The position numbers were made by a program, and so were the translations under genes. 64,000 nt of DNA, taken from the sequence record PP434429. One strand, written 5' to 3'. This DNA comes from Escherichia phage LH01. The notes under the pieces are model-generated. The model made no database searches. It had not been told where the DNA came from and saw nothing but the letters and a program-made list of their open reading frames with translations. Below are positions 4,223 through 41,863 of the stretch, one piece after another; positions within the stretch are counted from its first letter, which is position 1, and the number at the start of each line of letters is the position of its first letter.

Positions 4223-4639
4223 TTACGCAGCAACCATCTGCTTTTTAATAGCTTCAGGTAGTGATTCAATATATTCTGGAATTTTAGAAGCAACAATTTC
4301 GCCGGCTGCAATTAATTGTTCGTCGGCATCAACACAGTAGAAATCTTCCAGACGCTCAGAACCATCTTTATCAAGAACGATTTTTCCACCGGCTTCAATA
4401 GAATCTTTATAGTGCTTACGCATCAGATGAATCCACATATCAGATACATCGTTGTCGATAAAACCATAAATCATAAAACGAGTTTCTTGTGGCAAAGATT
4501 GAAGCTTTTTAGCACTCGCGTCATCACAATGCAGGACCCATGCTTTACGAACACGATTATGGTTATGCGGGTTAGCGTCAGTACGGATAGAAGTAACTTT
4601 CAGATCAGCAGCAGTGAAACCTTTAGCAGTAGTAAACAT
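4223..4639 (-). CDS. rpbA: RNA polymerase-binding protein RpbA
   Basis: 138 aa; TTAKGFTAADLKVTSIRTDANPHNHN... matches T4 RpbA; position between 45 and 46. Confidence 0.8.
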   Translation of the reverse strand: MFTTAKGFTAADLKVTSIRTDANPHNHNRVRKAWVLHCDDASAKKLQSLPQETRFMIYGFIDNDVSDMWIHLMRKHYKDSIEAGGKIVLDKDGSERLEDFYCVDADEQLIAAGEIVASKIPEYIESLPEAIKKQMVAA

Positions 4640-4651
4640 ATTATTTCTCTC

Positions 4652-4852
4652 TTATTCGTAGAAGTCAGTAACTGTCCATGCGGAATTGCGATTAGACATT
4701 ATTTTATTATACTCATCTTTAAAAGCAGATTTGAGCATTTGTTCAGTAACAATATGTTCTTCACCTGAAAACGTATTGGTCAAAACATATTTTTTAATTT
4801 CAGGGACAACGAGAAGATGTTGTCCGGTTGAATACTCCATGTTGTTCTCCAT
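4652..4852 (-). CDS. Small hypothetical protein (position of T4 45.2)
   Basis: 66-aa ORF in the 45-46 interval, same orientation and tightly packed. Confidence 0.55.
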   Translation of the reverse strand: MENNMEYSTGQHLLVVPEIKKYVLTNTFSGEEHIVTEQMLKSAFKDEYNKIMSNRNSAWTVTDFYE

Positions 4853-4894
4853 TTAATTTGATGTGGTCATTATAACCACATCGTGTTAAAGCGT

Positions 4895-6583
4895 TTATGA
4901 AACAGTCATCACAGTAAATCGTCCAACTTTGCTCATTTGAAGATGTTGTCCATAAGCTTGTGGGTCATGGTCTCTGTGACTAATTATAAACACGTTTGCA
5001 TCGGTTAGAGAGTTAAGAATTGTTGAAATAGCTTTAATACCTTCAGAATCAGTCGCGGAATCCATGACTTCGTCCATAATTAATGTATTGATTCTAACAC
5101 CAGAGACCTTTTCAGCAATATCTCGCCATGTAAACAACAATGCGATATCGATACGTGCCTTTTCACCTTGACTAAATGAAGCATAACTGAACTCTTCACG
5201 GCCACGTGATTTTATAGATTCATTGAATTCTTCATCAATAGAAAACACGTAATCAGCTTCCATGATTTTAAGGTAATGGTTAATCTGCTTGTTGAACAGA
5301 GGCACATATTTTTTAATGATAGCACCTTTAATACCAGAATCTTTTAACATATCTGTTATAATACCACGATGGTATTTTTCAAGAACGATATCCGATTTTG
5401 TTTTAATGATTTTATCAAGTTCTTTTTGAAGCAAAGCTATCTCATCGGCATGGTCGATAAATTCCGCCGAGGCTTGTTCTATTGCAGCTTTAACTTTCTT
5501 AGCTTTATCAATAGTGGCAATCATTGCTTGTTTCTTGGTACGAATATCAGATGCAAGGTCCTGTTTAGTCTTAACATTAGCTCTATATTCGTCCACTAGG
5601 ACACTCAGATTATCTCTGTGACAGGTAAGTTGCTCGAATGAGTGATTACATTCATGAAGCTTATCGGTAATCTTAGAGACAATAGGGTCACCCTGGTGCA
5701 ACTGTGATGCGCAAGTAGGACATGTACCGCCATCATGATACATCTTAATAACTTTGTTATATGAGTCGATTTTAGATTTAATCAAGAATGCTTCTTGTCC
5801 GATCTTGTTGAATGCCTCAGTAGGGTCTTCGTCAAGAACGATATTAAGTAGACGCTCATTAGCTTCTTCAATTTCTGCTTTTAATGAACGAGCTTCTTTG
5901 GCTAGGTCGTCATACATATTCTGTAGACGTGCTACATTATCGCCAGATAATTTCTTTTGGCGTTCGATATTCTCGTTATAAATCTTAATTTGTTGGATAA
6001 TACCATCTTTCTTGGCATCGAGAACTTGCCCCTGGGAATTAAGTTCTCGAACTTGAGACTTATTGATTTTATCCATTTCAGCGAGTGTGCCGACTTCTAA
6101 AAGGTCTTCGACAAGTTTTCTACGAGCAGGGGTGCTAAGAGCCATGAAAGGGGTATACCCTGCCGTCCCAAGCACAACGATCTGTTTAAAAGACGCGTAT
6201 GACATTCCGATGCTACGTTCAAATTCTTCTTGGAAGTCACGACTGCTGGCAGATTCATCAAGACGAACACCGTCAACGGAGATTTCGAAAATATTGGGCT
6301 TTTGGCCACGTTTAATGAAGTATTTTTTATCATCGAATTCCATCCAAAGCTCAACTAAGAGCTCTTTCTTGTTCGTGCTATTAATGATTTGTCCTTTCTT
6401 AACATCACGAAATGGTTTACCGAAAAGTCCGAAAGTAATGGCTTCTAACATCGTAGATTTACCACCACCATTTTTACCAGTGATTAATGTCTTTTGGACT
6501 TTATCTAATTGGATATCAATAGGATTCCCACCTACCGACATGATGTTTTGATAACGAACACGATTTAATTTAAATGATTTCAT
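4895..6583 (-). CDS. 46: Recombination endonuclease subunit gp46 (Rad50/SbcC-like ATPase)
   Basis: 562 aa; Walker A GKNGGGKST near N-terminus, long central coiled coil, C-terminal ABC signature region; T4 gp46 is ~560 aa. Confidence 0.9.
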   Translation of the reverse strand: MKSFKLNRVRYQNIMSVGGNPIDIQLDKVQKTLITGKNGGGKSTMLEAITFGLFGKPFRDVKKGQIINSTNKKELLVELWMEFDDKKYFIKRGQKPNIFEISVDGVRLDESASSRDFQEEFERSIGMSYASFKQIVVLGTAGYTPFMALSTPARRKLVEDLLEVGTLAEMDKINKSQVRELNSQGQVLDAKKDGIIQQIKIYNENIERQKKLSGDNVARLQNMYDDLAKEARSLKAEIEEANERLLNIVLDEDPTEAFNKIGQEAFLIKSKIDSYNKVIKMYHDGGTCPTCASQLHQGDPIVSKITDKLHECNHSFEQLTCHRDNLSVLVDEYRANVKTKQDLASDIRTKKQAMIATIDKAKKVKAAIEQASAEFIDHADEIALLQKELDKIIKTKSDIVLEKYHRGIITDMLKDSGIKGAIIKKYVPLFNKQINHYLKIMEADYVFSIDEEFNESIKSRGREEFSYASFSQGEKARIDIALLFTWRDIAEKVSGVRINTLIMDEVMDSATDSEGIKAISTILNSLTDANVFIISHRDHDPQAYGQHLQMSKVGRFTVMTVS

Positions 6584-6828
6584 ATGTATTCTCTTCGAAT
6601 GAAGTCCTCTACATATTTTAACATGTCATCCCTATCAGCAAAATATTCATCTAGTTCTGCATACATAACAACACCCGGTGCGTACTCACAGGTAACATAC
6701 ATTGTTCCAAAGAAACGAGGAGTTGTCTCCTCGTAATTCTCAGTCCATTCAACGATACCAATATAACCGTCACCAATACTAAATTCATGACGATGGATTT
6801 CATAATCAGTCTTCGTCATTATACGCAT
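6580..6828 (-). CDS. Hypothetical protein (position of T4 46.1)
   Basis: 82-aa ORF; overlaps the gene 46 start by 4 nt, typical operon packing. Confidence 0.55.
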   Translation of the reverse strand: MRIMTKTDYEIHRHEFSIGDGYIGIVEWTENYEETTPRFFGTMYVTCEYAPGVVMYAELDEYFADRDDMLKYVEDFIRREYI

Positions 6829-7063
6829 CCTTGATACATGCTTCAGCCATTTTAAGAATAGAGCCAGGAGTATCGTTGTCCATTATATTAAAGCTAAATT
6901 CAATAGCCCAGTCGGTGTAGACATGAACTGCTTTAACTTCATTGCCTTCAACGCGTAATGGCTCAATCCAATACTTGATAGTGTTCTCGAATCCATCATC
7001 ATCTTTAACGTCCATTTCAACTTCAAGCCCGAGCCCAGCATTATTAAATTCATCTAAAGTCAT
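6806..7063 (-). CDS. Hypothetical protein (position of T4 46.2)
   Basis: 85-aa acidic ORF between 47 and 46; 4-nt overlap with gene 47 stop. Confidence 0.55.
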   Translation of the reverse strand: MTLDEFNNAGLGLEVEMDVKDDDGFENTIKYWIEPLRVEGNEVKAVHVYTDWAIEFSFNIMDNDTPGSILKMAEACIKDAYNDED

Positions 7064-8079
7064 TGTGTTGCCTCAATATAAAGTTCGTTGGAATATTTGA
7101 CCAGCGCTTCTCTGTCTTCGTCTGAGATATCTGGAATCGCGTCAATATATTCTTTAATGATATCTTGAAGTGATTTAATCTCGATTTCCTGGTCGTCATC
7201 AGATTCAACACTGTTATCAACTTTAGAAACCATACGAAGAGAGTGAACTACTTTTTCAAGTTCAGATTCAAACTTAGTCAACTCTGAATCAATTTCTGAT
7301 ACTATAACACGTACGGCTAGATTGGTATAATCAGAATAATTGATTTTGCCTTTAAACGGATAAGTGATTCGTCGATGCCATGTTGTTTCATTAGGAATAA
7401 ATTCCATACGTTCAACATCAGTGTCAAATACCCAGAACCCGCGCGGGTCGTTCTCATCACCTGCAGTAAGGGTCCATGGTGTCCCAATATATTTGACGTT
7501 AGCAGCTTCAGAGATTGTGTGGAAGTGGCCAGACCAGACTTGTTTATAAGTCTTTAAGAAATCAGGTTCAAGCCCATGAGACTTCATCCCTTTATAGAAA
7601 TAAAAGCCGTTCAGTTCCCAGTGCCCAACACAATACGCAGCAGAAGAAGTCTTGATGTGCTCTAAGATTTCACCTGTATTTTCTTCACACATCCATGGAA
7701 CGATATCAATCAGACATCCGTCAAAATCTACAGTAGTTGGATGTTCGTAAATAGTAAAGTTTTCAAATTGAGTTAACAATTCAGAAACAGTGTTAGGTGT
7801 TATTGTATTCTTAAACGCCATGTCATGGTTTCCTATCGTGACATGAACGTGAATGCCTGCTTTAGAAATCATATCAACTATTTCACGATTGAATTCCATT
7901 GTACGATGTGTTATTGCTTTACGGACGTCGAACCAATCACCGTACTGAATCCAAGTTTTAATCCCGTGTTTCTTAGAGTATTCAATTGCTTGACGAATAC
8001 CATCGCGTTGAATATCTTGAACCCATGGGTCGTCTTGTTTGACTCCGATATGGAAGTCGCCTAAGTGCAAAATTTTCAT
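7060..8079 (-). CDS. 47: Recombination endonuclease subunit gp47 (Mre11/SbcD-like phosphoesterase)
   Basis: 339 aa as in T4; MKILHLGDFHIG phosphoesterase motif I and GNHD motif; synteny. Confidence 0.9.
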   Translation of the reverse strand: MKILHLGDFHIGVKQDDPWVQDIQRDGIRQAIEYSKKHGIKTWIQYGDWFDVRKAITHRTMEFNREIVDMISKAGIHVHVTIGNHDMAFKNTITPNTVSELLTQFENFTIYEHPTTVDFDGCLIDIVPWMCEENTGEILEHIKTSSAAYCVGHWELNGFYFYKGMKSHGLEPDFLKTYKQVWSGHFHTISEAANVKYIGTPWTLTAGDENDPRGFWVFDTDVERMEFIPNETTWHRRITYPFKGKINYSDYTNLAVRVIVSEIDSELTKFESELEKVVHSLRMVSKVDNSVESDDDQEIEIKSLQDIIKEYIDAIPDISDEDREALVKYSNELYIEATQ

Positions 8080-8126
8080 ATTATTTCCTCATTAGTTAAT
8101 TCATTCTATCATCCGTTTATAAAGCA

Positions 8127-8152
8127 AAAAAGGAACTCCGAAGAGTTCCTAT
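8127..8152 (-). terminator. Intrinsic terminator (AGGAACUC-UUCG-GAGUUCCU followed by UUUUUU) upstream of gene 47
   Basis: Perfect 8-bp inverted repeat with UUCG loop; minus-strand sense has a 6-U tract after the stem. Coordinates approximate. Confidence 0.55.
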
Positions 8153-8322
8153 CCACATAGTACACCGTACAGAGGCTCATTTGAACTTTTAAATCGAATG
8201 GGCTTGTACGTAATAGTTCCTTCGGCTTTAGCTTTATCATAAGACTCTTTAAAACGTCTCATTCTTTCTGCTTTGCCTTTACGGATTTTATCGAAATTTT
8301 CAGAAGTCGGGATGTTCGTCAT
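8148..8322 (-). CDS. Small hypothetical protein (~57 aa), not in ORF track
   Basis: Hand translation MTNIPTSENFDKIRKGKAERMRRFKESYDKAKAEGTITYKPIRFKSSNEPLYGVLCG; ends at the terminator hairpin. Below the 60-aa track cutoff. Confidence 0.35.
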
Positions 8323-8361
8323 GCATAAGCACCTCTCAGAAAATGCCTAAATCGATTTCTC

Positions 8362-8583
8362 TCATCGTTTCCACCATTTCTTAACTTGAAATGAATCAAC
8401 CCACACGAGTTGTTTTGGGTCTGCCTTTACAATAGGCGGACAAATTTCTGTAATAGAACCGTCGTGATATTCCTTTTCAGAAATTTTAACACAAAGAGGA
8501 CCACCCAATTTAATGGTGAACCCTGCGTTCAGCTTCAGACGTTTAAACTTTGTTTGAACTAGCGCCATTAATGATGTCCTCAA
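8362..8583 (-). CDS. Hypothetical protein
   Basis: 73-aa ORF, co-oriented, in the 47-55 interval. Confidence 0.45.
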   Translation of the reverse strand: MRTSLMALVQTKFKRLKLNAGFTIKLGGPLCVKISEKEYHDGSITEICPPIVKADPKQLVWVDSFQVKKWWKR

Positions 8584-8866
8584 TAGCCTGACGAGTAGTA
8601 ATCCACTGGATTTTAATTAACTTGTCATTATATGGTTGTCGTAGAATATCCCGAGATTTCTTAATAGCATATTCGTAAGCTTCGAAGTTGTTTTGAATTG
8701 CTGCTTCTTGAGCATGAGCATAAAGTCGATTTAGTTCGAAACGATTCTTTTTAAGAATCTTTTCAGATTTTTTACGTGCTTCTGCTTCATTTTTCTTTTG
8801 TATTTCTTGTAGCATTTTAGCTACTGCATCTTCTGCTTCTTTATTTTCAATAATCTCGGTAGTCAT
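8543..8866 (-). CDS. Hypothetical protein (Lys/Glu-rich, probably helical)
   Basis: 107-aa ORF; charged repetitive composition. Confidence 0.5.
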   Translation of the reverse strand: MTTEIIENKEAEDAVAKMLQEIQKKNEAEARKKSEKILKKNRFELNRLYAHAQEAAIQNNFEAYEYAIKKSRDILRQPYNDKLIKIQWITTRQAIEDIINGASSNKV

Positions 8867-8867
8867 A

Positions 8868-9083
8868 TTATCTCATTAAATTAAAATAAAAACGTCCGTC
8901 CTCTTCAATGCAGAACTCGTACTCAACTGGAGTCCCATTTATCGAAAATGACACGTCATGTGGGTTCAAAGGGTCGATGTCAAAATTAATTTTAAATTCT
9001 CGACCCAACAGTTTTACCAAATAAGGGATTGCTTCGTCAAAAGGTTCTTCTAAGTAGTTAGAGATATCAATTGTCATCCTCAT
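8868..9083 (-). CDS. Hypothetical small protein
   Basis: ORF-track ORF 8868..9161 overlaps the gene 55 3' end; start moved to an internal Met just after gene 55 stop. Confidence 0.4.
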
Positions 9084-9624
9084 ATAAAAAATCCAAACTA
9101 GGCGAATCGCTAACAACTTCCTTCTTTTCAGCCCCAGGAGCTTTATAAGCGGATTCTTCATAATGCGTCATTTTATCGTAGATGTCTTGAATAAACGTTT
9201 CATCTACCAACGCTACCATATCATCGTCATGACTGTCGTAGACATTATGAACGAAGTAACTATATTTCTTTGCAACTTCCTTACGTTCTTTTTTGATACG
9301 TTGGACAAAAGCATTAAAACAAGCTCGAGTTATGTATGCATGTGGGTTATTGTACTTAGTTTCGTCGAAATTATGAAGTCCCTTAATAGAGGCTTCAATC
9401 CCATCTGCAATCATCTCCTGCTTCCAAGACTGGGTATATCCTGAAAAGTTGAAACGTTTGGACAGGCCTTCGGCGATAAGCATAATTGCTAAACCGATGG
9501 TATCATTCTGACGAATAATTTTGTTTGGGTCTTTATTATTTAAGAGCTCCTTTTTCCACTCGATTATAGCGGCGAGAAGCTCTTTATTATTCACATAGTT
9601 ATTTTTAGGTTTTTGTTCAGTCAT
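9067..9624 (-). CDS. 55: Late-transcription sigma factor gp55
   Basis: Start at [17 protein letters not shown] with AAGAGG SD; near-identical to T4 gp55 ([48 protein letters not shown]...). Confidence 0.9.
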
Positions 9625-11956: not shown

Positions 11957-12118
11957 TTTGTTTTCCTCTATAGCAGATGGTTTAATCTTAACACATCTAT
12001 TGAGGATGTAAACTGTTTTATGAAAATATTTTCGATTTGAGAGGGGCACAAGGAGATAGTGAAGTGAAGATTCTAATGGATTATATTAGAAATAGGATAA
12101 AGAAGACCAGGCACCTGG

Positions 12119-12442
12119 TCAATCTTCTATGATATCAGAGTCGTATCCTAATGAAATCAAGGACTTTTTAAACTCTGCAATATTCTTTTGTTTCTTATCA
12201 TTTAAAAATATGACAGGATAACGAATATTAAGTGAAGTGAATCCTGCACGTTTAGCAAGAGATACGATTAAAGGACGATCATATTCAATCTTACCATTAT
12301 TAGTGAGGACTTTATAAAATGTATAAGGAGCATTGAGCTCCTTTAAAAGTTTTGTAACAGTATAACATCCTGGACAACGTCCAACTTCTTCAGGGATGCC
12401 ATAAATTTCAATCTTGTTCTTTAAGTTCGAGTTTTGTTCCAC
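12119..12442 (-). CDS. nrdH: Glutaredoxin/NrdH-like redoxin (proposed GTG start)
   Basis: Contains a CPGC thiol motif in a glutaredoxin-like context (KIEIYGIPEEVGRCPGCYTVTKLL); the only RBS-backed start is a GTG after AAGGAA. Position before nrdG matches T4 nrdH. Confidence 0.5.
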   Translation of the reverse strand: MEQNSNLKNKIEIYGIPEEVGRCPGCYTVTKLLKELNAPYTFYKVLTNNGKIEYDRPLIVSLAKRAGFTSLNIRYPVIFLNDKKQKNIAEFKKSLISLGYDSDIIED

Positions 12443-26990: not shown

Positions 26991-27572
26991 TTATAACAAC
27001 CCTGTCAAATCATTCCAATGCTTCCGGCATAATGACACATATCTATCGGTATCACCAATTTCAATTTGACTGCCATCTGTAATTGGAAGTCCGTCTTCCG
27101 TGACTCTAGCTACCATTGTGGCCTTTTTACCGCAATGACAGACACCTTTAAGTTCAACAAGCTTATCGGCAATAGCCATTAATGCTTGAGAACCTTCAAA
27201 TAGATTACCTTTAAAATCTGTTCGTAGTCCATATGCCATTACCGGCACATTGTATACGTCAACAATACGACTAAGTTGATACACCTTTTCAGTAGTTAAG
27301 AACTGAGCTTCGTCAACAAATACACAGTGAATATCCTTTTGTGCTGCAGCCCATTTATAGAATTCAAAGATATCCATGTCTTTTGTAATTATATTGGCAT
27401 CCTGACGAATACCAATACGAGAGACTATTTCACCTTTTGAATCACGAGTATCAATAGCCGGTTTAAGAACTAATACACCCATGCCACGTTCTTTATAGTT
27501 ATGTGCGGCAGTAAGTAATGAAGCAGACTTACCAGCGTTCATAGCGGCATATGTAAAAATTAAACTAGCCAT
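26991..27572 (-). CDS. tk: Thymidine kinase
   Basis: 193 aa as in T4 Tk; P-loop MNAGKSASLL and C-terminal Zn-binding cysteines CHCGKKA...CRKH. Confidence 0.9.
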   Translation of the reverse strand: MASLIFTYAAMNAGKSASLLTAAHNYKERGMGVLVLKPAIDTRDSKGEIVSRIGIRQDANIITKDMDIFEFYKWAAAQKDIHCVFVDEAQFLTTEKVYQLSRIVDVYNVPVMAYGLRTDFKGNLFEGSQALMAIADKLVELKGVCHCGKKATMVARVTEDGLPITDGSQIEIGDTDRYVSLCRKHWNDLTGLL

Positions 27573-32996: not shown

Positions 32997-33293
32997 CTAT
33001 TTTTCTGAAGCGCCTGAAATATATTTTTCAAGACGTTGTTTCATCAGCGAGCCGTTCTTAGCGATTTCTTCTGGTTTATCGCACATACGCAACAAGGCTT
33101 CAAGCTTAGCGATATCGCTGGTACGTTCAAATTTGCGAGTATCTATCTTACTAGCAAGTTCAGAAATACGTGCTAATAGACTTTCAGCTTCAACCAAAGC
33201 TGCACCTAGCTTAGTTGCAAATGTGTCAGTAGCTTCGTTAAGAATAGATTCTGATAAAAATTCACTATATGTTTTCATATATACGCTTTCCAA
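32997..33293 (-). CDS. Internal-protein-like (N-terminus [10 protein letters not shown])
   Basis: 98 aa; capsid-targeting-sequence-like N-terminus; helical charged body. Confidence 0.55.
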
Positions 33294-33763
33294 GTTCCTG
33301 TTTTAAATGTTGAGATTACGCGTTTCGCGCGATTAGGTGTCTGACGATACCATTTAGATTGAGCTAGATTTACTGCCGCTTCATCCCAACGTTTCTGTTT
33401 AAGCATACGAAGAGAATTAGTAAAACCGGCGACTCCTGCTACACCCATTTGGAAGACCATATTGACCAATGCACACCGACGAACTGCATCTAAAGAATCA
33501 TATACCGGTTTAAGTTTAGCATTACCCAAGATTCCGCGGACAGCTTTATCAACGTCTTCATTAAATAGCTTTTCAGCCTCATCAAGGGTAATTGTACCGT
33601 TGCATTTACGACCGATCATTCTGTCAAGTTCAGCTTTAGCTACGGCTAAAGACGGGTTCTTTGTTACTAAATGGCCTATGCCAATCGTCCAAAAGCCTTC
33701 AGTGTCTTTGTATAAAGTCAGTCTAAGACCTTCGTCATTACGAAGCATTTCAAATATATTCAT
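33275..33763 (-). CDS. e: Endolysin (T4 lysozyme, gene e)
   Basis: Start at [33 protein letters not shown]; near-identical to T4 lysozyme, including catalytic Glu11/Asp20/Thr26 positions. Confidence 0.9.
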
Positions 33764-33797
33764 AATACCTCCCACGTTTATAGGAGGTATTTATTAC

Positions 33798-34256
33798 TTA
33801 TAGGAGGGTAGTGAGCACCTTATATAATGATTTGCCCATTACATATTCCCATTGAGAAGGTTTAATTAAAGCGAATGCATCAAATTCAGGAATCTGTCGT
33901 CCGTCTGGGAATGTATGATAGGAATTGCAAACACTGTTTCTGAATTGCTCGTGCTCTACAGGGATGGTATATAGGAACAGATGAATATTCTTATTGTCTG
34001 AGTAATTATGTTCACCTAGGTCTTTCAGGAAGGCAGGGTCATATTGTGTAAACCCAGTTTCTTCTTCGCATTCACGAATAGCGGCTTCAATAGGAGATTC
34101 ACCAGGTTCGACACGGCCTTTAGGAATATCCCACCGATGAGCTAATGCACCTTTAGGACGAGAACCAGTTACACGACCCATGAATAATTCTTTATCTTTT
34201 GTCATGAAGATAATACCGGCTGATAGTTCTTTCACTTTATTTTTCTTACTCATCAT
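33798..34256 (-). CDS. nudE: Nudix hydrolase (NudE-like)
   Basis: 152 aa; Nudix box GRVEPGESPIEAAIRECEEETG; adjacent to e as in T4. Confidence 0.8.
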   Translation of the reverse strand: MMSKKNKVKELSAGIIFMTKDKELFMGRVTGSRPKGALAHRWDIPKGRVEPGESPIEAAIRECEEETGFTQYDPAFLKDLGEHNYSDNKNIHLFLYTIPVEHEQFRNSVCNSYHTFPDGRQIPEFDAFALIKPSQWEYVMGKSLYKVLTTLL

Positions 34257-34497
34257 CTCGGTCCCATGATTTGGCCATTAATTCGGACATAAATTCTTCA
34301 ATACGCGTTTCTTTAGATGGACTTTCACTATTAGAGACCGCAAGTTTGTAATCTGCAATAGGACTGAACAAATCAAGGTCCATATTAAGATCGTCTTTGA
34401 TTTTTTCTTCTGACACATCTTTATCATATGTGTACAGATAACTATCACATGATTCTGATTTAATGTAAATTGCTATACTCATCTCAAATTCCTGCAT
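34246..34497 (-). CDS. Hypothetical acidic protein
   Basis: 83-aa ORF; the true start may be the second Met (MSIAIY...). Confidence 0.45.
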   Translation of the reverse strand: MQEFEMSIAIYIKSESCDSYLYTYDKDVSEEKIKDDLNMDLDLFSPIADYKLAVSNSESPSKETRIEEFMSELMAKSWDRDDE

Positions 34498-34970
34498 TCG
34501 GTAATAAAACGTTCAACTTCATTATTCTTGGCCTTTATCTTGTCTTTACGTTCCTGTAAACTACTTTTAACAAGATTAATAATGATGCCTATAGTACCTC
34601 CACCAATAATACCACCAATAATACTTACGATAGTAGATGCTAATAAGATAGCGATAATATCTGGTATGGCAAAGGCACTTACTTTAGTACTAAAAAACCA
34701 TACCGACGGTACAAATATAATCCATCCTGTTATCCATTGGCACTTATTGAAAAACTTTTCAAGCTCAGCTTGAGTTGTTCGTATTACTTCATCGATAGGT
34801 TGATATCCATTAATGTATCTGTTCACGATAATACCTGCTGGCTGGTCGATTTTAAATTCTTGGCAAATACGTTTCACTAAGTAGGATGGACATCCTGTCC
34901 AATCCACTGAATAGTACGAAATACCTTCATTGCCGTCGTCAATATTAGACCAATATGTTTTGTTAATCAT
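34479..34970 (-). CDS. Membrane protein, C-terminal ERFITECR motif
   Basis: 163 aa; transmembrane segments ITGWIIFVPSVWFF and IIAILLASTIVSIIGGIIGGGTIGIIINL; shares a C-terminal F-I-x-E-C-R motif with four other genes. Confidence 0.5.
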   Translation of the reverse strand: MINKTYWSNIDDGNEGISYYSVDWTGCPSYLVKRICQEFKIDQPAGIIVNRYINGYQPIDEVIRTTQAELEKFFNKCQWITGWIIFVPSVWFFSTKVSAFAIPDIIAILLASTIVSIIGGIIGGGTIGIIINLVKSSLQERKDKIKAKNNEVERFITECRNLR

Positions 34971-35656
34971 TACCAGCCTTCCATAGGGAATTCCAGATAA
35001 ACTTGAGCATTGACACGAATTTCATTGGTAATCTTTTTAACTCGGTCTGTATTACGAGATACACGTCCGAACCAACGCCATCCATTACTAATTGCACGAG
35101 AACCAGTGTGCCATGTTTGCCAATCAAACTGAAGAAGAGTACGATCTGGAGCTTCCCATTTCTCTAGTTCACCTTTTTCAATTTTTTCGAGGACTTCTTT
35201 GTGCCACTGGCGATAGATAAGTTCGCCATCAGGAATCTGACTGAACTCTGCAGTTCCTGTTGCAAAATGAGTAGGACACACATCAGCGTTAACAAGACCA
35301 AGAATATGTTCAGACAAATAGCGAGGATTGTCATAGTCAGGTTGTCCTGCAGTAATAAAATGTTGACCAACCGGAATATCCGGGCGTGGTACGTCATCAT
35401 GGTGATAACCAGGAATAGCAGGATACCAACCAGGCATCAGCATATGGACACGTGAATCAAATACTACATCCGAGTCTTTCCAATCGTCAGGGAGATTTTG
35501 GATAAAGCTACGAGTAATTGGACCGCCGTTATCAAAAGCAAAATTCAAATCGCAATTAAAGAACATAGGCTCGTTTTTAATCTGGTCATTTTTAATCGCA
35601 TGAGCAAAACCACCTACTGCACGAGCTTGACTATTAAACACTTTAGAACTATTCAT
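34970..35656 (-). CDS. Hypothetical 228-aa protein (Trp/His-rich)
   Basis: ORF with good RBS (GAGGAAAA); no recognised motif. Confidence 0.55.
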   Translation of the reverse strand: MNSSKVFNSQARAVGGFAHAIKNDQIKNEPMFFNCDLNFAFDNGGPITRSFIQNLPDDWKDSDVVFDSRVHMLMPGWYPAIPGYHHDDVPRPDIPVGQHFITAGQPDYDNPRYLSEHILGLVNADVCPTHFATGTAEFSQIPDGELIYRQWHKEVLEKIEKGELEKWEAPDRTLLQFDWQTWHTGSRAISNGWRWFGRVSRNTDRVKKITNEIRVNAQVYLEFPMEGW

Positions 35657-35657
35657 A

Positions 35658-35963
35658 TTATTTTCCTCGACATTCTTTAATGAAATTTTCTAGATTGGTA
35701 GATTCAATAGCTTTTTTACGAGCTTCTGCGTGTTCTTCTTCAGACAATTTACATTTATAATTGACCCAGACGTTATGGTCGAAACTAGTCGTGGCATATA
35801 ATAACAATGCTCCAACGAATAGCAAAAACGGCGATAAGAATACAAAACCAGGAACACCATCCATGCTGTAAGCCTTTTGTAATACTGCAACAGAAAGAGC
35901 TGCGTAAAAAAGTGATACAAATATTGTTAAAAGACCAATTCGGTTGGTTTCGCCTAATTTCAT
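35658..35963 (-). CDS. Small membrane protein, C-terminal ENFIKECR motif
   Basis: 101 aa; two hydrophobic helices; C-terminus ...LENFIKECRGK. Confidence 0.5.
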   Translation of the reverse strand: MKLGETNRIGLLTIFVSLFYAALSVAVLQKAYSMDGVPGFVFLSPFLLFVGALLLYATTSFDHNVWVNYKCKLSEEEHAEARKKAIESTNLENFIKECRGK

Positions 35964-35984
35964 AATATTCTCCTCATGTTTTAA

Positions 35985-36025
35985 TAGGACTACTATAACA
36001 TAGTCCTATCAGTTTGTACACTTAT
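35985..36025 (-). promoter_or_regulatory. Early-promoter-like palindromic cassette (ATAGGACTA...TAGTCCTAT around TATAGT)
   Basis: Plus strand taggactactataacatagtcctatcagtttgtacac; same family as 25903, 37548, 44222 and 44548. Coordinates approximate. Confidence 0.4.
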
Positions 36026-36240
36026 TTTGACATTTCTTCGATGTCACGACGATACCCATCACGAACTTCACGAAGAGCTTCAAGGCCACACATAGGCTCG
36101 ATACCAGTAATGTGAACTTGATTAATCTGATACTCTACATCTTCTAACTGAGCGAAAACATAACGACGTTCTGCTGCACAACCAGGTTTAGCTTTACCGA
36201 AACGTTTATTCAAAGTAGTCATTTTTATATCTCCATTCAC
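36022..36240 (-). CDS. Hypothetical protein
   Basis: 72-aa ORF. Confidence 0.45.
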   Translation of the reverse strand: MNGDIKMTTLNKRFGKAKPGCAAERRYVFAQLEDVEYQINQVHITGIEPMCGLEALREVRDGYRRDIEEMSK

Positions 36241-36250
36241 TCATTTGTTT

Positions 36251-36292
36251 TGATAGGTCTATAGTATCAACAACTACAGACCTTGTAAACTG
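36251..36292 (-). promoter_or_regulatory. Early-promoter-like palindromic cassette
   Basis: Plus strand tgataggtctatagtatcaacaactacagaccttgtaaac; minus strand GTTTAC...TATAGA. Coordinates approximate. Confidence 0.4.
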
Positions 36293-36302
36293 TTTTGTGA
36301 AA

Positions 36303-37259
36303 TTATTTGAAAGGTTTTACCATATGAAAGTTTTGTTTGAAACGCTTGACGTAATCGTCGTGTCCTAAGCTTTGGTACATACTTACTACTTTGCTATAAT
36401 TTTCCCAAGCGAACTCACGGAACCATCCTGATGTGATTGATGTACAGACCTTTTCAAGGGCCATCATAAAACTATCACGTGGATGGATTTCAAAGTTATT
36501 AGGAATCTGAGAACGTTCTAACGCTAGTACACATGATTCTTCGTATACGCCGGCCAATTTGACCATTTCTGGTAATGATTCGAACTTCTCGCGTGAGGTC
36601 ATGACTTCAGAACCATCTTTCATATAAAATGTATACGCTGGACGGTCTGTTAGTGCAATGGCTTCATGAATAGTATCATGGTCATATGTATAGATGTCAT
36701 CTTTAAAGAACGCACTTTTAGAAGTGTCAAGAACTGGGTGAGCATAATTCAAGGTTTCTTTCTGGCGTTTCAGCATAATTTCAGTAAGTTCATCGTTCAG
36801 TGTAACACCTTTACCACGAAGATACTGAATATGGTTCATAGTCTTTAAAAAGAATGGATTATTTTTCTTGAAACGATGAGACATCTTAATTGCAAGACAT
36901 ATCTCAGGAGTTGCCCAGTAAAACCCGTTCAAACGGTCTTTAGTCAAATTTTTCTTGGCGTATTTTAAAAGGTCATAAGAAGACGTGAAATCTTCAGGAG
37001 TGAGTTCACCGACTAGTTCGCGAACGTTAGTGATAGCCGGAACGATGTATGCTTCAAAATGAGTTTCGCGTCCATTATGGAAGCATTTGAAAACTTGGAC
37101 ATTAGGGTTATCTTGGTGAACATATACACCCATCATTTGATTTTTGAATGCATTCCAAGAACCTTGGTCCGCAATAAAGTCCCAATCACTATTTTTAATA
37201 GCGCTAGAATCAATAAGACCGTGATAGTGAAGTGCACGAGAACCAATAACTAACATCAT
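36303..37259 (-). CDS. Hypothetical 318-aa protein
   Basis: Long ORF with its own promoter cassette; no motif recognised by eye. Confidence 0.55.
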   Translation of the reverse strand: MMLVIGSRALHYHGLIDSSAIKNSDWDFIADQGSWNAFKNQMMGVYVHQDNPNVQVFKCFHNGRETHFEAYIVPAITNVRELVGELTPEDFTSSYDLLKYAKKNLTKDRLNGFYWATPEICLAIKMSHRFKKNNPFFLKTMNHIQYLRGKGVTLNDELTEIMLKRQKETLNYAHPVLDTSKSAFFKDDIYTYDHDTIHEAIALTDRPAYTFYMKDGSEVMTSREKFESLPEMVKLAGVYEESCVLALERSQIPNNFEIHPRDSFMMALEKVCTSITSGWFREFAWENYSKVVSMYQSLGHDDYVKRFKQNFHMVKPFK

Positions 37260-37287
37260 AATATTTTCCTCTGATTAATTCATTAAC

Positions 37288-37539
37288 TTAAATTTCACGA
37301 CATGCGATATTATATTCATCCCAGAGGTCATCATGTGAAGCCTCTACCAAAGGAACGATTGTACCGTTTATGTCTTCGTTATAAGGGCAAATTGTACAGT
37401 GCGCATCTTCGAATCGGATGCCTTTGTGTTCAGATTTTTTATAACGCATATCGAATATCTTTGCAAACTTTTCACGAGTAATGGTTTTACCAACCACTTT
37501 GGTTCCGATACTTTCGTAATAAATCATTGTGGACTCCAT
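37288..37539 (-). CDS. Hypothetical protein (possible Zn-binding; CTIC)
   Basis: 83-aa ORF; the likely start is the second Met (MIYYES...) with a GGAG SD. Confidence 0.45.
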   Translation of the reverse strand: MESTMIYYESIGTKVVGKTITREKFAKIFDMRYKKSEHKGIRFEDAHCTICPYNEDINGTIVPLVEASHDDLWDEYNIACREI

Positions 37540-37547
37540 TTGTTTTG

Positions 37548-37586
37548 ATAGGACTACTATAACATAGCCCTATCTTGTTGTAAACT
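37548..37586 (-). promoter_or_regulatory. Early-promoter-like palindromic cassette
   Basis: Plus strand gataggactactataacatagccctatcttgttgtaaac. Coordinates approximate. Confidence 0.4.
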
Positions 37587-37589
37587 GTT

Positions 37590-37787
37590 TTAGCAAGAAT
37601 AACTAGATGATACCCAGCCTTGAACAGTGATACTATTGTGGGATAATGAGATCGCGTCCTGGAGATTCAGACCTGCGTTATCTTCAATCCATAATGTAAC
37701 TTCTTCGCGTTCTTCTGTTGCAATTTGGAACAGGTTTTCCAGAGCAGCTACTGCCGTACGTACAGCACAATCTAATTCACGAGACAT
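37590..37787 (-). CDS. Small protein, member 1 of C-terminal W-x-S-S-S-x-x-C family
   Basis: 65 aa ending ...QGWVSSSYSC; shares the terminal motif with the next two genes. Confidence 0.5.
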   Translation of the reverse strand: MSRELDCAVRTAVAALENLFQIATEEREEVTLWIEDNAGLNLQDAISLSHNSITVQGWVSSSYSC

Positions 37788-37796
37788 AATATTTCC

Positions 37797-38024
37797 TTAG
37801 CAAGACATAGAGGAAGAGAACCAGAAACCTTTGCCTTCCGGAATTCCATAATCGTTACGGATCCAGCCATATTCATCATATTCTGAACTGGTCGCCGGAA
37901 TATATCGGTTAAGTCCTTCAGCATACACATGAAAATACTCGCCGGTTTTATCAGCTAATTGTTGGCCTTCACAGATTAGTGCTCGAATTTGGTCTTCAAT
38001 TTCTTTAACGGTTTTAGTGGTCAT
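37797..38024 (-). CDS. Small protein, member 2 of C-terminal W-x-S-S-S-x-x-C family
   Basis: 75 aa ending ...GKGFWFSSSMSC. Confidence 0.5.
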   Translation of the reverse strand: MTTKTVKEIEDQIRALICEGQQLADKTGEYFHVYAEGLNRYIPATSSEYDEYGWIRNDYGIPEGKGFWFSSSMSC

Positions 38025-38033
38025 TTTATTTCC

Positions 38034-38327
38034 TTAACACATTTGAGAAGAGGAGATCCATACACCGGAAGTAACGATACCATTTTCGTCAACTTCACCG
38101 CCATAGTTTTCAATTTCATCGCGCATCCAGCGACTACATTCATAACCAACAGGATAGTAAGTACGACCTGAACCATATTCACCTACATCAAATGAAACAC
38201 CATACTTATCTGCGATAATAGTAGCTTCATTCTCGATATGGTCTTGAGCACGAAGAAGTTTGCTGATTGCTTCTTCTGCAGATTTAGCGTCATTGTATTC
38301 AGGGATTACGATTTCAATTTTACTCAT
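38034..38327 (-). CDS. Small protein, member 3 of C-terminal W-x-S-S-S-x-x-C family
   Basis: 97 aa ending ...SGVWISSSQMC. Confidence 0.5.
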   Translation of the reverse strand: MSKIEIVIPEYNDAKSAEEAISKLLRAQDHIENEATIIADKYGVSFDVGEYGSGRTYYPVGYECSRWMRDEIENYGGEVDENGIVTSGVWISSSQMC

Positions 38328-38683
38328 TTTCTACATTCCTTAATAAAGTTTTCGATTGTTTCATTTTCACGTTTAACTAGAAGTTCATTATAACTAATCA
38401 TTTGAGAAGCGTAAACCTTTTTATTTTTCTTGTTATGGTAAATAAAGTCATAGTAAAAATAGACTACTGTACAAAAGGATGCAATGGATGCAAAGGCTTG
38501 GGTATACCGTAAGTCCTGCCATTGGTCGGTGAATCCACCAGCGTTCCCTATAAATCCTAATACAACACCGTCAATAAGAAATCCAACTAATCCAAAGGCA
38601 AATCCCATGCCAATACTCATAATAAAAATTAGAATGTTCTCACCAAGAGACGGCCATACGGTTAAGAGTTGAGGCTTTTGCAT
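38324..38683 (-). CDS. Small membrane protein, C-terminal ENFIKECRK motif
   Basis: 119 aa; Gly-rich transmembrane segments; C-terminus ...ETIENFIKECRK overlaps the RBS and start of the next gene. Confidence 0.5.
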   Translation of the reverse strand: MQKPQLLTVWPSLGENILIFIMSIGMGFAFGLVGFLIDGVVLGFIGNAGGFTDQWQDLRYTQAFASIASFCTVVYFYYDFIYHNKKNKKVYASQMISYNELLVKRENETIENFIKECRK

Positions 38684-39087
38684 CTTATTTCCTTAACGAA
38701 TTCCATAGCTTCTTCATATTCATACTTTTTAACAGCTTCATCATACTGAGCTTGGGCTTTTGCGCACTGAACTTTCCATTCTCTTAATCGGGCTCTGTGA
38801 TGACGGCCTTGATGCCAATATCCTACCCAATTAATAGGCATTAATAAAAACGGTACAATAAATGGTGCGACGAACATTAATGAAAACGCTGCATCAGACG
38901 ATATAACTTCACTAGAATCTAAAATAGCTCCTATAATCATAAAGATTAAAAATGCTAAAGCTAAAATAGGACCAAATAATACTTCATACGGGATTAATTT
39001 ACGTTTGTATTCGTAGGCCCAAGGCTTACTTGGCATGTATAGGGTTGGCTTTGACATATTCTCTACATTCCATAATAAATTGCTCAA
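38662..39087 (-). CDS. Membrane protein, C-terminal EFVKEIRCK motif
   Basis: 141 aa; two transmembrane helices; C-terminus ...EEAMEFVKEIRCKSLNS. Confidence 0.5.
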   Translation of the reverse strand: MSNLLWNVENMSKPTLYMPSKPWAYEYKRKLIPYEVLFGPILALAFLIFMIIGAILDSSEVISSDAAFSLMFVAPFIVPFLLMPINWVGYWHQGRHHRARLREWKVQCAKAQAQYDEAVKKYEYEEAMEFVKEIRCKSLNS

Positions 39088-39628
39088 GGATTAAATTGTT
39101 AGTGAAATTAGGACTAACAACCATAGTTTCATAAAGCGCATCAATAGCACTTAAAGCATCAACTCTCTTAAGCAAAGGCTTGCCTTCATACATAGTTTCA
39201 GAATCGATGATTAACGTAAAGTAATATTTTTTATTATCGACTAGAACTTCTGTATCGATATAAAACATATTAGACCTCAGAAGCTTATCTCTAAAACCAT
39301 AATAATCTTCAGAGCGTTCGCTGATATATTCCCATTCAGTGTTTAAACAACAAACAGACCACGTAGGAGCAACGAAATCAGTGAATCTAATATCATGGTC
39401 TGCAACTAGTTTAGCAATAGCTCCGATATCATGAATCATAATACCTGGGGCTAATAAAGATTTTCTGCTATGGCTAGCCGTTTTCTCAGTGGTTTCATAA
39501 GAAGACGACCAGTACCATTTACGTCCGGTTGCAACATATCGTAATGAATCAACTAAAGACGTAGGTGGATTTACCTTATCTCGGAACTCTTCGAACATTG
39601 AGTCAATATCATTATTTTGGTTTCGCAT
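39026..39628 (-). CDS. Hypothetical protein with EQFIMECR near C-terminus
   Basis: Start moved to MRNQNNDIDSMFEEF (AAAGGAG SD); soluble; carries the same F-I-x-E-C-R motif. Confidence 0.5.
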   Translation of the reverse strand: MRNQNNDIDSMFEEFRDKVNPPTSLVDSLRYVATGRKWYWSSSYETTEKTASHSRKSLLAPGIMIHDIGAIAKLVADHDIRFTDFVAPTWSVCCLNTEWEYISERSEDYYGFRDKLLRSNMFYIDTEVLVDNKKYYFTLIIDSETMYEGKPLLKRVDALSAIDALYETMVVSPNFTNNLILEQFIMECREYVKANPIHAK

Positions 39629-39677
39629 GTTAACTCCTTTATTATCCAAAAGGAGGACCGGAGTCCTCCGTATTATT

Positions 39678-40271
39678 TTATTTCAAAGAGTTAATATATT
39701 CTTGTACATCAGCAGAAGTGGTTTCGACACCGGCTGGAGTGCCATTGAACGTTTCAACACGAGTCAGAGTGTCTTCGATATCAACCTTAGTCAGTGCAGC
39801 GATTTCAATCACATCATCAGCCGTAGAGATACCAAGGGCATTGGCTGCTCGAGTTTCACGAATGTATTCGAGTTTGATTGCCAGGTTCTGACGAGCATCG
39901 TCAAGTTCAACCACCTTACGAGCAATTTCAATTCGCATAGCGGCGTACCCGTCAGCTTTTGTATTAAGTTGTTCGGCCGTTCGACGATACAGAAGACCAA
40001 GCTTAGCATGCATGGTAACATCTTGTCCTTCAGCCAGGAGCTTACGAATTTCGCGTTCCTTAGAAGCGGCTTGCTTGTTCTTTTCATTAACAAGTTCGCG
40101 AATACGTTTTTCTTCATTAATAGATTTAACAGAAGCCGTTTTTAGTTCTTTGATTTGGGTAATCAACTTATCTGCAGCTGCGTTATACTGTTCTTCGACA
40201 GTCAGATTTTTAGCCATGGCAGTACCCAGTTTAGTGCGAATGAATTCAACAAGTTTCTTCAGAGTGTTCAT
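39678..40271 (-). CDS. Coiled-coil protein (197 aa), function unknown
   Basis: Almost entirely helical, charged heptad-like sequence; preceded by a promoter cassette at ~40295-40340. Confidence 0.55.
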
Positions 40272-40342
40272 ATTATTACCTTTTCAATTAGTGGGTTTAT
40301 TATCCATGAGAGCATTATACTCTGCTCTCAAGAGTTTGTAAA

Positions 40343-40570
40343 TTATTTTTTAATCAAATTGACATAAAACTTGGCGTCTTCGGGGTGCATGCCTTCGCAG
40401 TATTCTTCAACCATGAACTTCTTAACAGCTTCATAAGGACCACTCAGATTAAGCTCAGTTGTCCAGAACTTGGAATCTTGTACTGAATCAATACGAACTT
40501 CAGGGTGACGGTTGCGAATAACTTCTTCTGTGTATTCATAATCAACGACATCAATACTAACTTTAGCCAT
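40343..40570 (-). CDS. Hypothetical protein
   Basis: 75-aa ORF. Confidence 0.45.
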   Translation of the reverse strand: MAKVSIDVVDYEYTEEVIRNRHPEVRIDSVQDSKFWTTELNLSGPYEAVKKFMVEEYCEGMHPEDAKFYVNLIKK

Positions 40571-40628
40571 TTTGATTTCCTCATGTTGTTGATAAGTCTA
40601 TACTAACACCATCCTTGGCGTTTGTACA

Positions 40629-41132
40629 TCATTTATTTTTAATTTTACAAATTTTTCCAGCTTCGATACACGCGGCATAGATGATGCTCTGGGCAATTTT
40701 ATTGCTAGTAGACCTTGCAATCACACTAAGAACAATTTCTTTTTCTTCACCACCCCATCCCCAGCTATTTTGTCCATAGGTACCTTTAACTACGGCCGAA
40801 ACTTCAACAGAACGTCCACCATCAGAAGTTTTAACATCTACAACCCAATCGCCATCTTTCTCTTCAACTCGTGGTTTATCCCAAGAAATACTAATATATG
40901 ATTCACTGCCGATAGAAGTTGCCGGGTTTTTCTCTATCGTAAGCCCTTCACTTTCCAGCCATTCAATAGTATTTGCACATAAATCCGAAGAACACCTCAT
41001 CGGAAAGCGGCAAGATTTTTCACCTTTAGAGGCGGCTTCATACGTCTTTTCTAAAATACGCTTTTGCACGTTTTTAAAAATAGTTTCAGCAGATTCTTCA
41101 GATTTTTTATTCAGTTCAGTATAAAGACTCAT
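40629..41132 (-). CDS. Hypothetical 167-aa protein
   Basis: ORF with upstream promoter cassette (~41148-41192). Confidence 0.5.
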   Translation of the reverse strand: MSLYTELNKKSEESAETIFKNVQKRILEKTYEAASKGEKSCRFPMRCSSDLCANTIEWLESEGLTIEKNPATSIGSESYISISWDKPRVEEKDGDWVVDVKTSDGGRSVEVSAVVKGTYGQNSWGWGGEEKEIVLSVIARSTSNKIAQSIIYAACIEAGKICKIKNK

Positions 41133-41218
41133 AACATTTTCCTTTGTGGTTGATATGTCTTATAGTATCATGTCCTTAGAAGAAGTAAACAACTTTTTCA
41201 GTAAGTTGTAGACCCCCT

Positions 41219-41240
41219 AATGGGGACTTCGGTCCCCATT
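41219..41240 (-). terminator. Hairpin AAUGGGGAC-CGAA-GUCCCCAUU after the 41243..41863 gene
   Basis: 9-bp perfect stem immediately after the stop; followed on the minus strand by UUAGGGGGUC, the same tail that follows the 23282 hairpin. Confidence 0.4.
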
Positions 41241-41242
41241 CT

Positions 41243-41863
41243 TTACTTACGAGTTTTTGCATACTGAGCAGCGTCAGCAGCCAAACGACCTGCTTGTCGA
41301 AGTTTTTCTTTAATCTCATCATGAAGTGGTTGAGTATACTTCAAACCTTCGATAGTCAAATAAAGACGATAAAGGTCTGGGGTATCAAGGTTGTTGATAT
41401 GTTGGCCATTACGAAGACTATTGAATTCACGAACGAGTGAAGATGTATCAGATTCAATATCACGAACAAGCGAAGATAGTTGTTTATATTTTTTTTCCAG
41501 GCTAGAAGTATCAAACTTAAGAGCAGGAGCTTTAGGAGTTGCTTTTACTTCAGGCTTAGGCTCAGGTTTTGCTTTAGGGGTAGCAGGTTTAGGAATGGTA
41601 GGAGCAGGTTTTACTTTAGGCGAACCAGATTTAGCAGAAACACCACCACTAACAATATCTTTGAATGCTTTAGAAGCTCTGTAATATTCTTTTTGGCTGG
41701 AAGTGTCGATACCGTACATGGCTTGAACGTTTTTGAAAAACTCTGTACTAGTTTTTGTACCAGAAATAGCATCGTAAGCAGCTTGCCATTTCTCTTTTGT
41801 CATACGTACACCGGCTTCGGTGATTACTTCCGTTTCGGCTAAAAATTCATTAAAAGTATACAT
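41243..41863 (-). CDS. Internal-protein-like (IPIII-like size; N-terminus MYTFNEFLAETEV; Pro/Lys-rich linker)
   Basis: 206 aa; capsid-targeting-sequence-like N-terminus; central PKVKPAPTIPKPATPKAKPEPKPEVKATPKAP low-complexity segment. Confidence 0.55.
   Translation of the reverse strand: MYTFNEFLAETEVITEAGVRMTKEKWQAAYDAISGTKTSTEFFKNVQAMYGIDTSSQKEYYRASKAFKDIVSGGVSAKSGSPKVKPAPTIPKPATPKAKPEPKPEVKATPKAPALKFDTSSLEKKYKQLSSLVRDIESDTSSLVREFNSLRNGQHINNLDTPDLYRLYLTIEGLKYTQPLHDEIKEKLRQAGRLAADAAQYAKTRK

Follow-up and report, generated by a model that had tools for sequence, protein, structure and literature searches.

Why should five neighbouring genes of Escherichia phage LH01 end in, or close to, the same short peptide, F-I-x-E-C-R, at the point where the next gene begins? 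The genes lie between 34479 and 39628 of a 64,000-nucleotide stretch (sequence record PP434429), the whole of which we refer to as the window; it comes from an RB69-like T4-type phage of the genus Mosigvirus, with Escherichia phage PECP20 as the top match (98.6% identity over 34200-39700). A first-pass annotation had proposed either a family of paralogues or a conserved junction cassette, comprising the motif, a ribosome-binding site, and a start codon, that has moved between genes. Our analyses lead to a different answer, namely that the shared element is a protein-level C-terminal peptide, or tag, at the cytoplasmic end of otherwise unrelated early proteins, and that the tag is linked in the genome to e.6, a neighbouring gene for a PspA/Vipp1-like protein.

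All five open reading frames (ORFs), here called P1 to P5, lie on the minus strand at the coordinates first assigned to them, and their C-termini read as the first-pass annotation gave them. Comparison with T4 identified four of them as orthologues of known genes. P1 (34479-34970; 163 residues; phrog_2203) is a full-length orthologue of e.2, made up of an N-terminal soluble domain, two transmembrane (TM)-like stretches, and a K/R-rich tail that ends in VERFITECRNLR (motif codons 34491-34517). P2 (35658-35963; 101 residues; phrog_9798) combines two TM-like stretches with a charged tail, the last residues of which are LENFIKECRGK (motif codons 35667-35693), and is among the genes between e.3 and e.2 of the window that T4 lacks. 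P3 (38324-38683; 119 residues), the orthologue of e.3, likewise has two TM-like stretches and ends in IENFIKECRK (motif codons 38330-38356), the C-terminus of T4 e.3 itself being MKEFVIDCRKIK. P4 (38662-39057, or to 39087; 131 residues from the ATG at 39057), the orthologue of e.4, has two TM-like stretches and the C-terminus MEFVKEIRCKSLNS, in which the motif (codons 38683-38709) is degenerate (AMEFVKEIRCKSLNS): it reads F-V-K-E-I-R-C-K, with an Ile in the Cys position and the Cys displaced by two positions. T4 e.4 carries a similar degenerate copy, F-V-K-E-S-R-C-K, and ends in IMKFVKESRCKSQS. P5 (39026-39628; 200 residues), the orthologue of e.5, lies directly downstream of e.6 (39678-40271) and has the C-terminus LEQFIMECREYVKANPIHAK, with LEQFIMECR (39062-39088) located 11 residues before the stop. 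The initial description of the set as mostly small membrane proteins is borne out, since four of the five combine two hydrophobic TM-like stretches with a K/R-rich tail, while e.5 is soluble by sequence.

Database searches revealed little about function: for P1 to P5, Pfam, PHROGs, and NCBIfam returned either family labels without informative function or no match. A homologue search with e.5 yielded three matches, too few for an alignment, and one with an alignment of the tails recovered only fragments of T4-like e.2 and P2. An AlphaFold2 (AF2) model of e.5 from a shallow alignment was unusable (pLDDT 36.5), though its residues 179-194 fall in a helix. As for T4, its reference genome (NC_000866; locus L033, ∼67484-67960) annotates e.2 as a protein of 102 residues, while the close relative L040 has an intact e.2 of 162 residues; relative to L040, the T4 gene has lost 1 nucleotide (nt) from an A run and gained 1 nt ∼90 nt later. 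Because of these two indels, which reflect either a pseudogene or an old sequencing error, the C-terminal part of T4 e.2, which ends in NNFITECRKLK and overlaps the nudE start, is unannotated.

The recurrence of the motif goes far beyond chance in AT-rich sequence. A six-frame search of the window gave four copies of the string E-x-F-I-x-E-C-R, whereas 200 dinucleotide shuffles gave 0.005 on average and 500 residue shuffles gave none. All four of these strict copies are at gene C-termini within the flagged 5 kb, so that the five genes do end in or near a common motif, with e.4 as the degenerate member. Even the tripeptide ECR is found only four times in the six frames, each time within E.FI.ECR and 1-11 residues ahead of a real ORF stop. 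When a looser pattern was run over the 109 ORF calls of the window, it retrieved only the four strict motif genes and the thymidine kinase (26991-27572). The kinase match, YVSLCRKHW, is a regular-expression false positive, which we take to reflect the enzyme's own conserved Cys-rich C-terminal region; a scan of all early regions of T4 (1-78 kb and 125-169 kb) likewise placed the motif in e.2, e.3, e.4, and e.5 only, apart from a thymidine-kinase false positive. An 83-residue gene of the window (37288-37539) ends in EYNIACREI and was excluded as a member, as its homologues do not keep that ending.

To examine the tag across T4-type phages, we fetched 30 loci around a 318-residue DUF7275 gene of the window (36303-37259), which served as the anchor, and 36 loci around e.6. 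Across these loci, the motif takes the form hydrophobic-x-x-[F/W]-[I/V]-x-x-C-R-(K/R/G/N), and 90 of the 110 regular-expression matches lie at most 12 residues from a stop codon, nearly all of them on the coding strand; the full range of tag-to-stop distances is 1 to 32 residues. The tag is borne by ∼27 BLAST-level clusters, about half of them two-TM proteins and half soluble proteins of 93-290 residues. Among 40 divergent representatives, Cys and Arg are invariant, as is the presence of either Phe or Trp. When segments were ranked by conservation, the motif window came first in one of the two most diverged families (rank 0 of 314) and near the top in the other (rank 4 of 256). The conserved residues are spaced at i, i+3, i+4, and i+7, which places them on one face of a short amphipathic helix. 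With its short conserved pattern, its characteristic C-terminal location, and its occurrence in otherwise unrelated proteins, the element is a short linear motif, and in the window it is found at the cytoplasmic end of e.2, P2, e.3, and e.4, as well as in the soluble e.5. In its most general form, which takes in the distant loci considered below, the motif reads hydrophobic-x-x-[F/W/Y/I]-[I/V]-x-x-[C/A]-[R/K]-(basic or Gly). Since Ala stands in place of Cys across whole distant lineages, the Cys appears to act as a small hydrophobic packing residue, and we dropped a redox or metal-binding role on the same grounds. A resemblance to the T4 prohead-protease site (I-x-E; compare FIxE) was set aside as well, because the Glu is not conserved beyond the phage group of the window.

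The gene just upstream of e.5, outside the flagged coordinates, gives this peptide a setting, for the tagged genes sit in an operon-like block that starts directly downstream of it. e.6 (39678-40271, minus strand; 197 residues) encodes a divergent homologue of PspA/IM30/Vipp1, which belong to the ESCRT-III superfamily. The window protein alone had no match in Pfam. Its AF2 model (pLDDT 76) shows an N-terminal helix, a long hairpin, and further helices (residues 2-22, 25-80, 86-145, 166-175, and 186-196), and its nine best Foldseek matches in the PDB are Vipp1, PspA, or the archaeal ESCRT-III protein CdvB2, at E-values (6.5e-4 to 5e-2) that are modest, as is usual with all-helical folds. An exhaustive profile search delineated a compact family of 45 proteins at E up to 0.001, mostly of ∼200 residues, and five of 35 family members match PF04012 (PspA_IM30) in Pfam, with a best E-value of 8.9e-10. 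Further, the family profile aligns with Vipp1 and PspA chains at E-values of 6e-5 to 1.5e-3, colinearly from residue 1 (1-146 with 1-147). By sequence match and by its predicted ESCRT-III-like fold, e.6 is thus a member of the PspA/IM30/Vipp1 group, a similarity that was already on record in a genome announcement (PMC7862958).

The tag and e.6 are genomically linked, and this link holds at deep divergence. In all 36 loci fetched around e.6, whose homologues are 51-99% identical, the ORF directly after e.6 bears the tag, being split by a frameshift in two of them. In Aeromonas phages, e.6 and the e.5-type gene still adjoin, at a different place in the genome. Fetched loci without e.6 are also without motif ORFs, as seen even within the related pairs L016 and L017, and L022 and L023; the exception is L013, to which we return below. 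We also assembled a distant set of eight e.6 homologues with 17-35% identity, from neighbourhoods as different as uvsX/41 to ligase, nrdD/nrdG, and endonuclease VII/lysozyme. Variants of the tag, such as LEEYIMQCR, TQSFIDECK, IESFIHQCK, MEKYIHRCK, VESILANAR, VKAIVHRAR, IKTIIARAK, IQKIVEQAR, and IEMIINEAR, terminate a gene neighbouring e.6, frequently the adjoining one, in seven of these eight loci, and several of the carriers are small TM proteins. Of the 46 genes located no more than three genes from e.6, 8 matched a loose form of the pattern, compared with 1 of 58 genes farther off (Fisher p = 0.0098).

In three metagenomic T4-like contigs (L085, L087, and L088), the tag takes the form I-[I/V]-x-x-A-R and is found on three or four consecutive small TM proteins beside the PspA-like gene; in L087, these carriers lie upstream of that gene and not downstream.

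What might such a tag do? It is probably a common docking peptide, which would tie all of its carriers to one shared partner, and e.6 is the best candidate for that partner. The two-TM proteins would then serve as anchors or adaptors that recruit the PspA-like e.6 to the inner membrane, much as LiaI does for LiaH, and PspB and PspC for PspA; a soluble protein of the e.5 type would be a further client or a regulator; and the module as a whole would help to keep the host membrane energised after the shut-off of host gene expression. We regard a C-terminal docking-tag module centred on the phage PspA-like e.6 as the best explanation overall, with about an even chance of being correct, and direct binding of the tag to e.6, taken by itself, as having a chance that is even at best and perhaps a little lower. 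A broader formulation is that T4-type phages bear their own PspA/ESCRT-III-like membrane-remodelling module, in which a nine-residue helix, hydrophobic-x-x-F-I-x-x-C-R, would act as a universal address tag to the e.6 polymer for changing anchors and soluble clients, and would have co-diversified with e.6 into CR, CK, and AR variants; this we offer tentatively, as an idea that is somewhat more likely to be wrong than right.

Several observations weigh against a docking module built on e.6. Any exposure of the motif helix is putative, as e.5 could be modelled only with a pLDDT of 36, and a comparison of P1 to P5 with PspB, PspC, LiaI, and any other Psp or Lia family gave no Pfam or NCBIfam match at E ≤ 0.1. 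One of the eight distant e.6 loci, L090, shows no motif. Moreover, L013 keeps four motif proteins without e.6 and without an e.5-type gene, and its contig is absent from the e.6 matches of a scan of the collection, which indicates that the tag can persist without a phage e.6. Finally, the connection to e.6 consists of gene adjacency and co-occurrence, both of which could arise from a shared operon history without any contact between the proteins. Regarding the L013 contig itself (165,540 bp), the block of e.6, e.5-type, and WxSSSxxC genes is swapped for unrelated genes at ∼4500-9550, upstream of the four retained FIxxCR genes; homology to its relatives (L015) starts only at ∼9557, and a further gene there (12001-12363) ends in ALNFIQGIRGTR, with an Ile in the Cys position.

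The main rival to e.6 as the docking partner is a host factor, such as host PspA, PspF, or an inner-membrane protease or chaperone, or else another phage protein, with e.6 being a mere functional neighbour. The four motif proteins that L013 holds without e.6 are what such a reading would lead one to expect. However, the tag stands next to e.6 in every one of the 36 loci and recurs near most of the distant e.6 homologues in unrelated contexts, for which a direct partnership is the simplest account, and we therefore consider a host or other partner rather unlikely, though worth keeping in view.

Another possibility is that the carriers descend from very old tandem duplications, or arose by domain shuffling, with the C-terminal helix as the slowest-evolving remnant of a common ancestor, for example a membrane-packing or self-association element. 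Four of the five share the architecture of two TM stretches and a charged tail, P2 weakly matches the C-terminal half of the e.2 family phrog_2203 (E 1.2e-4), the carriers are always clustered, and families at the e.5 position are distantly homologous to each other. Against this, the bodies of the e.2, P2, e.3, e.4, and e.5 families show no homology once the motif is cut off. Smith-Waterman z-scores among the five bodies range from -0.4 to 1.5, indicating no pairwise similarity; hhalign probabilities are at most 5% among the e.2, e.3, and e.4 families, 0.6% for the e.4-e.5 pair, and similarly low for pairs with the family of P2, while the e.2-e.5 and e.3-e.5 pairs are not among the 40 best-scoring comparisons. 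The sole strong profile-profile match (88% probability) joins two families that occupy the e.5 position in different phages (clusters 1 and 5). The single paralogue family first suggested therefore finds no support, pairwise or profile against profile, and what the proteins have in common is the C-terminal peptide, together with the two-TM architecture in four of them. In addition, one and the same tag is found on soluble proteins of 93-290 residues and on membrane proteins alike, and the invariant Cys-Arg across ∼27 clusters suggests a specific contact and not a generic helix. Very old paralogy of the small membrane proteins is an unlikely explanation, though not a negligible one.

The other reading of the first-pass annotation, in which the conserved unit is a nucleotide cassette of motif, ribosome-binding site, and start codon that is mobile or serves translational coupling, starts from a correct observation. 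The motif codons do overlap the ribosome-binding region of the next gene, and at all five junctions of the window, each on the minus strand, the next ATG lies -1 to +10 nt from the Arg codon (1 to 65 nt in other phages). At the end of P1 (34480-34493), the Shine-Dalgarno (SD) sequence AGGA (34490-34493) consists of the Arg codon AGG plus an A, and the ATG (34480-34482) overlaps the P1 stop as ATGA. Between P2 and the following gene of 228 residues (35654-35668), the SD sequence GAGGA (35664-35668) derives from the Arg-Gly codons CGA GGA, and the ATG (35654-35656) lies 1 nt past the P2 stop. The Lys-Glu codons provide the SD sequence AAGGA at the end of P3 (38337-38341; junction 38325-38341), where the ATG of the next gene (38325-38327) overlaps the P3 stop, and again at the P4-P3 junction (38690-38694; junction 38681-38694), where the ATG of P3 (38681-38683) overlaps the P4 Arg codon within a gene overlap of 22 nt. 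The P5-P4 junction has a weak SD sequence only. The use of the Lys-Glu codons as SD sequence, asserted for at least three cases, is therefore seen in two (P3 and P4), as P1 and P2 rely on the Arg and the following codon and the P5-P4 SD sequence is weak.

Beyond this overlap, the nucleotide evidence does not bear out a cassette. When the five junctions were aligned on the motif, the 30 nt ahead of it were 33% identical and the 36 nt after it 34%, compared with ∼27% for random sequence, whereas the motif itself reached 84% for the first and second codon positions and 54% for the third. Related phages supplied 63 motif copies distinct at the nucleotide level, in which the codons for Phe (TTT/TTC 39/21), Ile, and Cys (TGT/TGC 32/31) follow the genome background. 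Only the Arg codon is skewed, with AGA or AGG in 52% compared with 21% in the background, which speaks in favour of an SD function and fits an occasional second role in the downstream SD sequence. Nor is a downstream gene always present: the motif is retained where the following start is 29-65 nt away or absent, as in the Aeromonas-phage copies L023 and L024, which lack any candidate downstream start in the 60 nt after the stop, and in a third copy (L025), there is a weak downstream start only, without an SD sequence. Across T4-type phages, the peptide is shared by ∼27 families, its distance to the next ATG varies, and some copies have no adjoining gene. Tight junctions are, moreover, the norm in the window, where 47 of the 93 same-strand junctions (∼51%) overlap or lie within 10 nt, and an Rfam search of 33000-41500 gave no match. 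Given the near-random flanks, the free synonymous sites, the variable register and SD codons, and the inconstant downstream gene, we reject the cassette as very improbable, and conclude with high confidence that the tag is a shared C-terminal element selected at the amino-acid level; the overlap between motif and ribosome-binding region is a by-product of tight gene packing that shows only as the AGA/AGG bias for Arg. Least probable of all, and hardly credible, is a peptide that acts in cis while nascent, as a ribosome-arrest or termination-modulating sequence: the tag does lie near stop codons, and its conserved hydrophobic residues and Arg superficially resemble known arrest peptides, but its variable distance to the stop (1 to 32 residues) and its lack of a consistent relation to downstream starts argue otherwise, as do the helical periodicity and the Cys-to-Ala and Phe-to-Ile changes, which fit a helical binding face.

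Returning to the docking tag, its closest parallels lie in systems that handle PspA and ESCRT-III proteins. ESCRT-III MIM motifs, which bind MIT domains, are short amphipathic C-terminal helices that act as portable interaction modules. The phage tag would be similar in its length of ∼9 residues, its C-terminal helix, and its ESCRT-III-superfamily setting, while it differs in being carried by the putative partners instead of the ESCRT-III-like protein, as well as in its unrelated sequence pattern. Small membrane anchors are an established recruitment route for PspA-family proteins, as with LiaI and LiaH of B. subtilis (PMC9239133). Similar to PspA with PspB/PspC in E. coli, and to LiaH with LiaI, the phage locus has a PspA/IM30-type gene, e.6, followed by genes in the same direction for small inner-membrane proteins, whose C-terminal tails are predicted to be cytoplasmic, helical, and positively charged. 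Unlike in those systems, the module is phage-encoded, homology of its membrane proteins to PspB, PspC, or LiaI is not detectable, the partnership is putative, and a single short tag, the like of which is not described in the Psp and Lia literature that we examined, is common to several unrelated carriers, soluble ones among them.

T4-type phages also contain PeSL cassettes, which are intergenic, nucleotide-conserved units of a promoter plus a stem-loop that are tied to gene shuffling (PMC2839356, PMC4122927). The FIxxCR element occurs in the same hyperplastic region, with three PeSL-like copies between the flagged genes, but it differs from them in lying within coding sequence and in being conserved at the amino-acid level, with randomised synonymous sites and flanks. 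The three intergenic copies (35973-36022, 36242-36296, and 37537-37591) each comprise an early-promoter-like GTTTACA box followed by a stem-loop that holds TATAGT; they divide the gene cassettes between e.3 and e.2, and resemble the published PeSL (PMC2839356, PMC4122927).

As to prior knowledge of the genes, P1, P3, P4, and P5 are straightforward orthologues of T4 e.2, e.3, e.4, and e.5, whose families (PHROGs 2203, 2330, 2604, and 2607; precomputed Pfam identifiers PF26896 and PF26876) are catalogued singly as being of unknown function, and which the present analysis joins by the tag. We came across neither the cross-family tag nor its coupling to e.6 in the searchable literature, which for e.3, e.4, e.5, and e.6, or for a phage PspA and its partners, yielded only the genome announcement that noted the e.6-PspA similarity.

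The same block holds further elements. Three consecutive minus-strand genes (38034-38327, 37797-38024, and 37590-37787) end in a second C-terminal motif, G-x-W-x-S-S-S-x-x-C, with the Cys as the last residue (GVWISSSQMC, GFWFSSSMSC, and QGWVSSSYSC). Over the fetched loci, W-x-[S/T]-S-S-x(0-3)-C exactly ends an ORF 175 times on the coding strand, compared with 20 other occurrences, and a related stretch, WYWSSSYE, lies near the N-terminus of e.5 (residues ∼38-45). The 318-residue protein that served as our anchor (36303-37259, minus strand) combines DUF7277 and DUF7275; it is present from enterobacterial to Aeromonas T4-like phages with 41-98% identity, and absent from T4. Between the e.6 stop and the e.5 ribosome-binding site, a G+C-rich hairpin, GGAGGACTCCGGTCCTCC, followed by TTTT (39652-39669, minus strand), is terminator- or attenuator-like, with a possible role in attenuating transcription or in stabilising the e.6 message. 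Upstream of e.6, the gene at 40343-40570 (minus strand) clearly belongs to Phage_FRD3 (PF05798, E 1.3e-38), the family of T4 frd.3, a gene that sits in a different part of the T4 genome.

The e.2-e.8 block of T4 has been labelled hypothetical since the genome was sequenced, and a tag of ∼27 families that is tied to a phage PspA homologue offers a concrete and cheap test of what the block does, as well as an annotation aid that flags fast-evolving small genes as parts of one functional module. If the docking reading is true, T4-type phages would bring along membrane-stress machinery of their own and, with it, a modular system of adaptors, which would bear on the proton-motive force after host shut-off, on the tolerance of lysis inhibition and superinfection, and on the targeting of PspA/ESCRT-III proteins generally.

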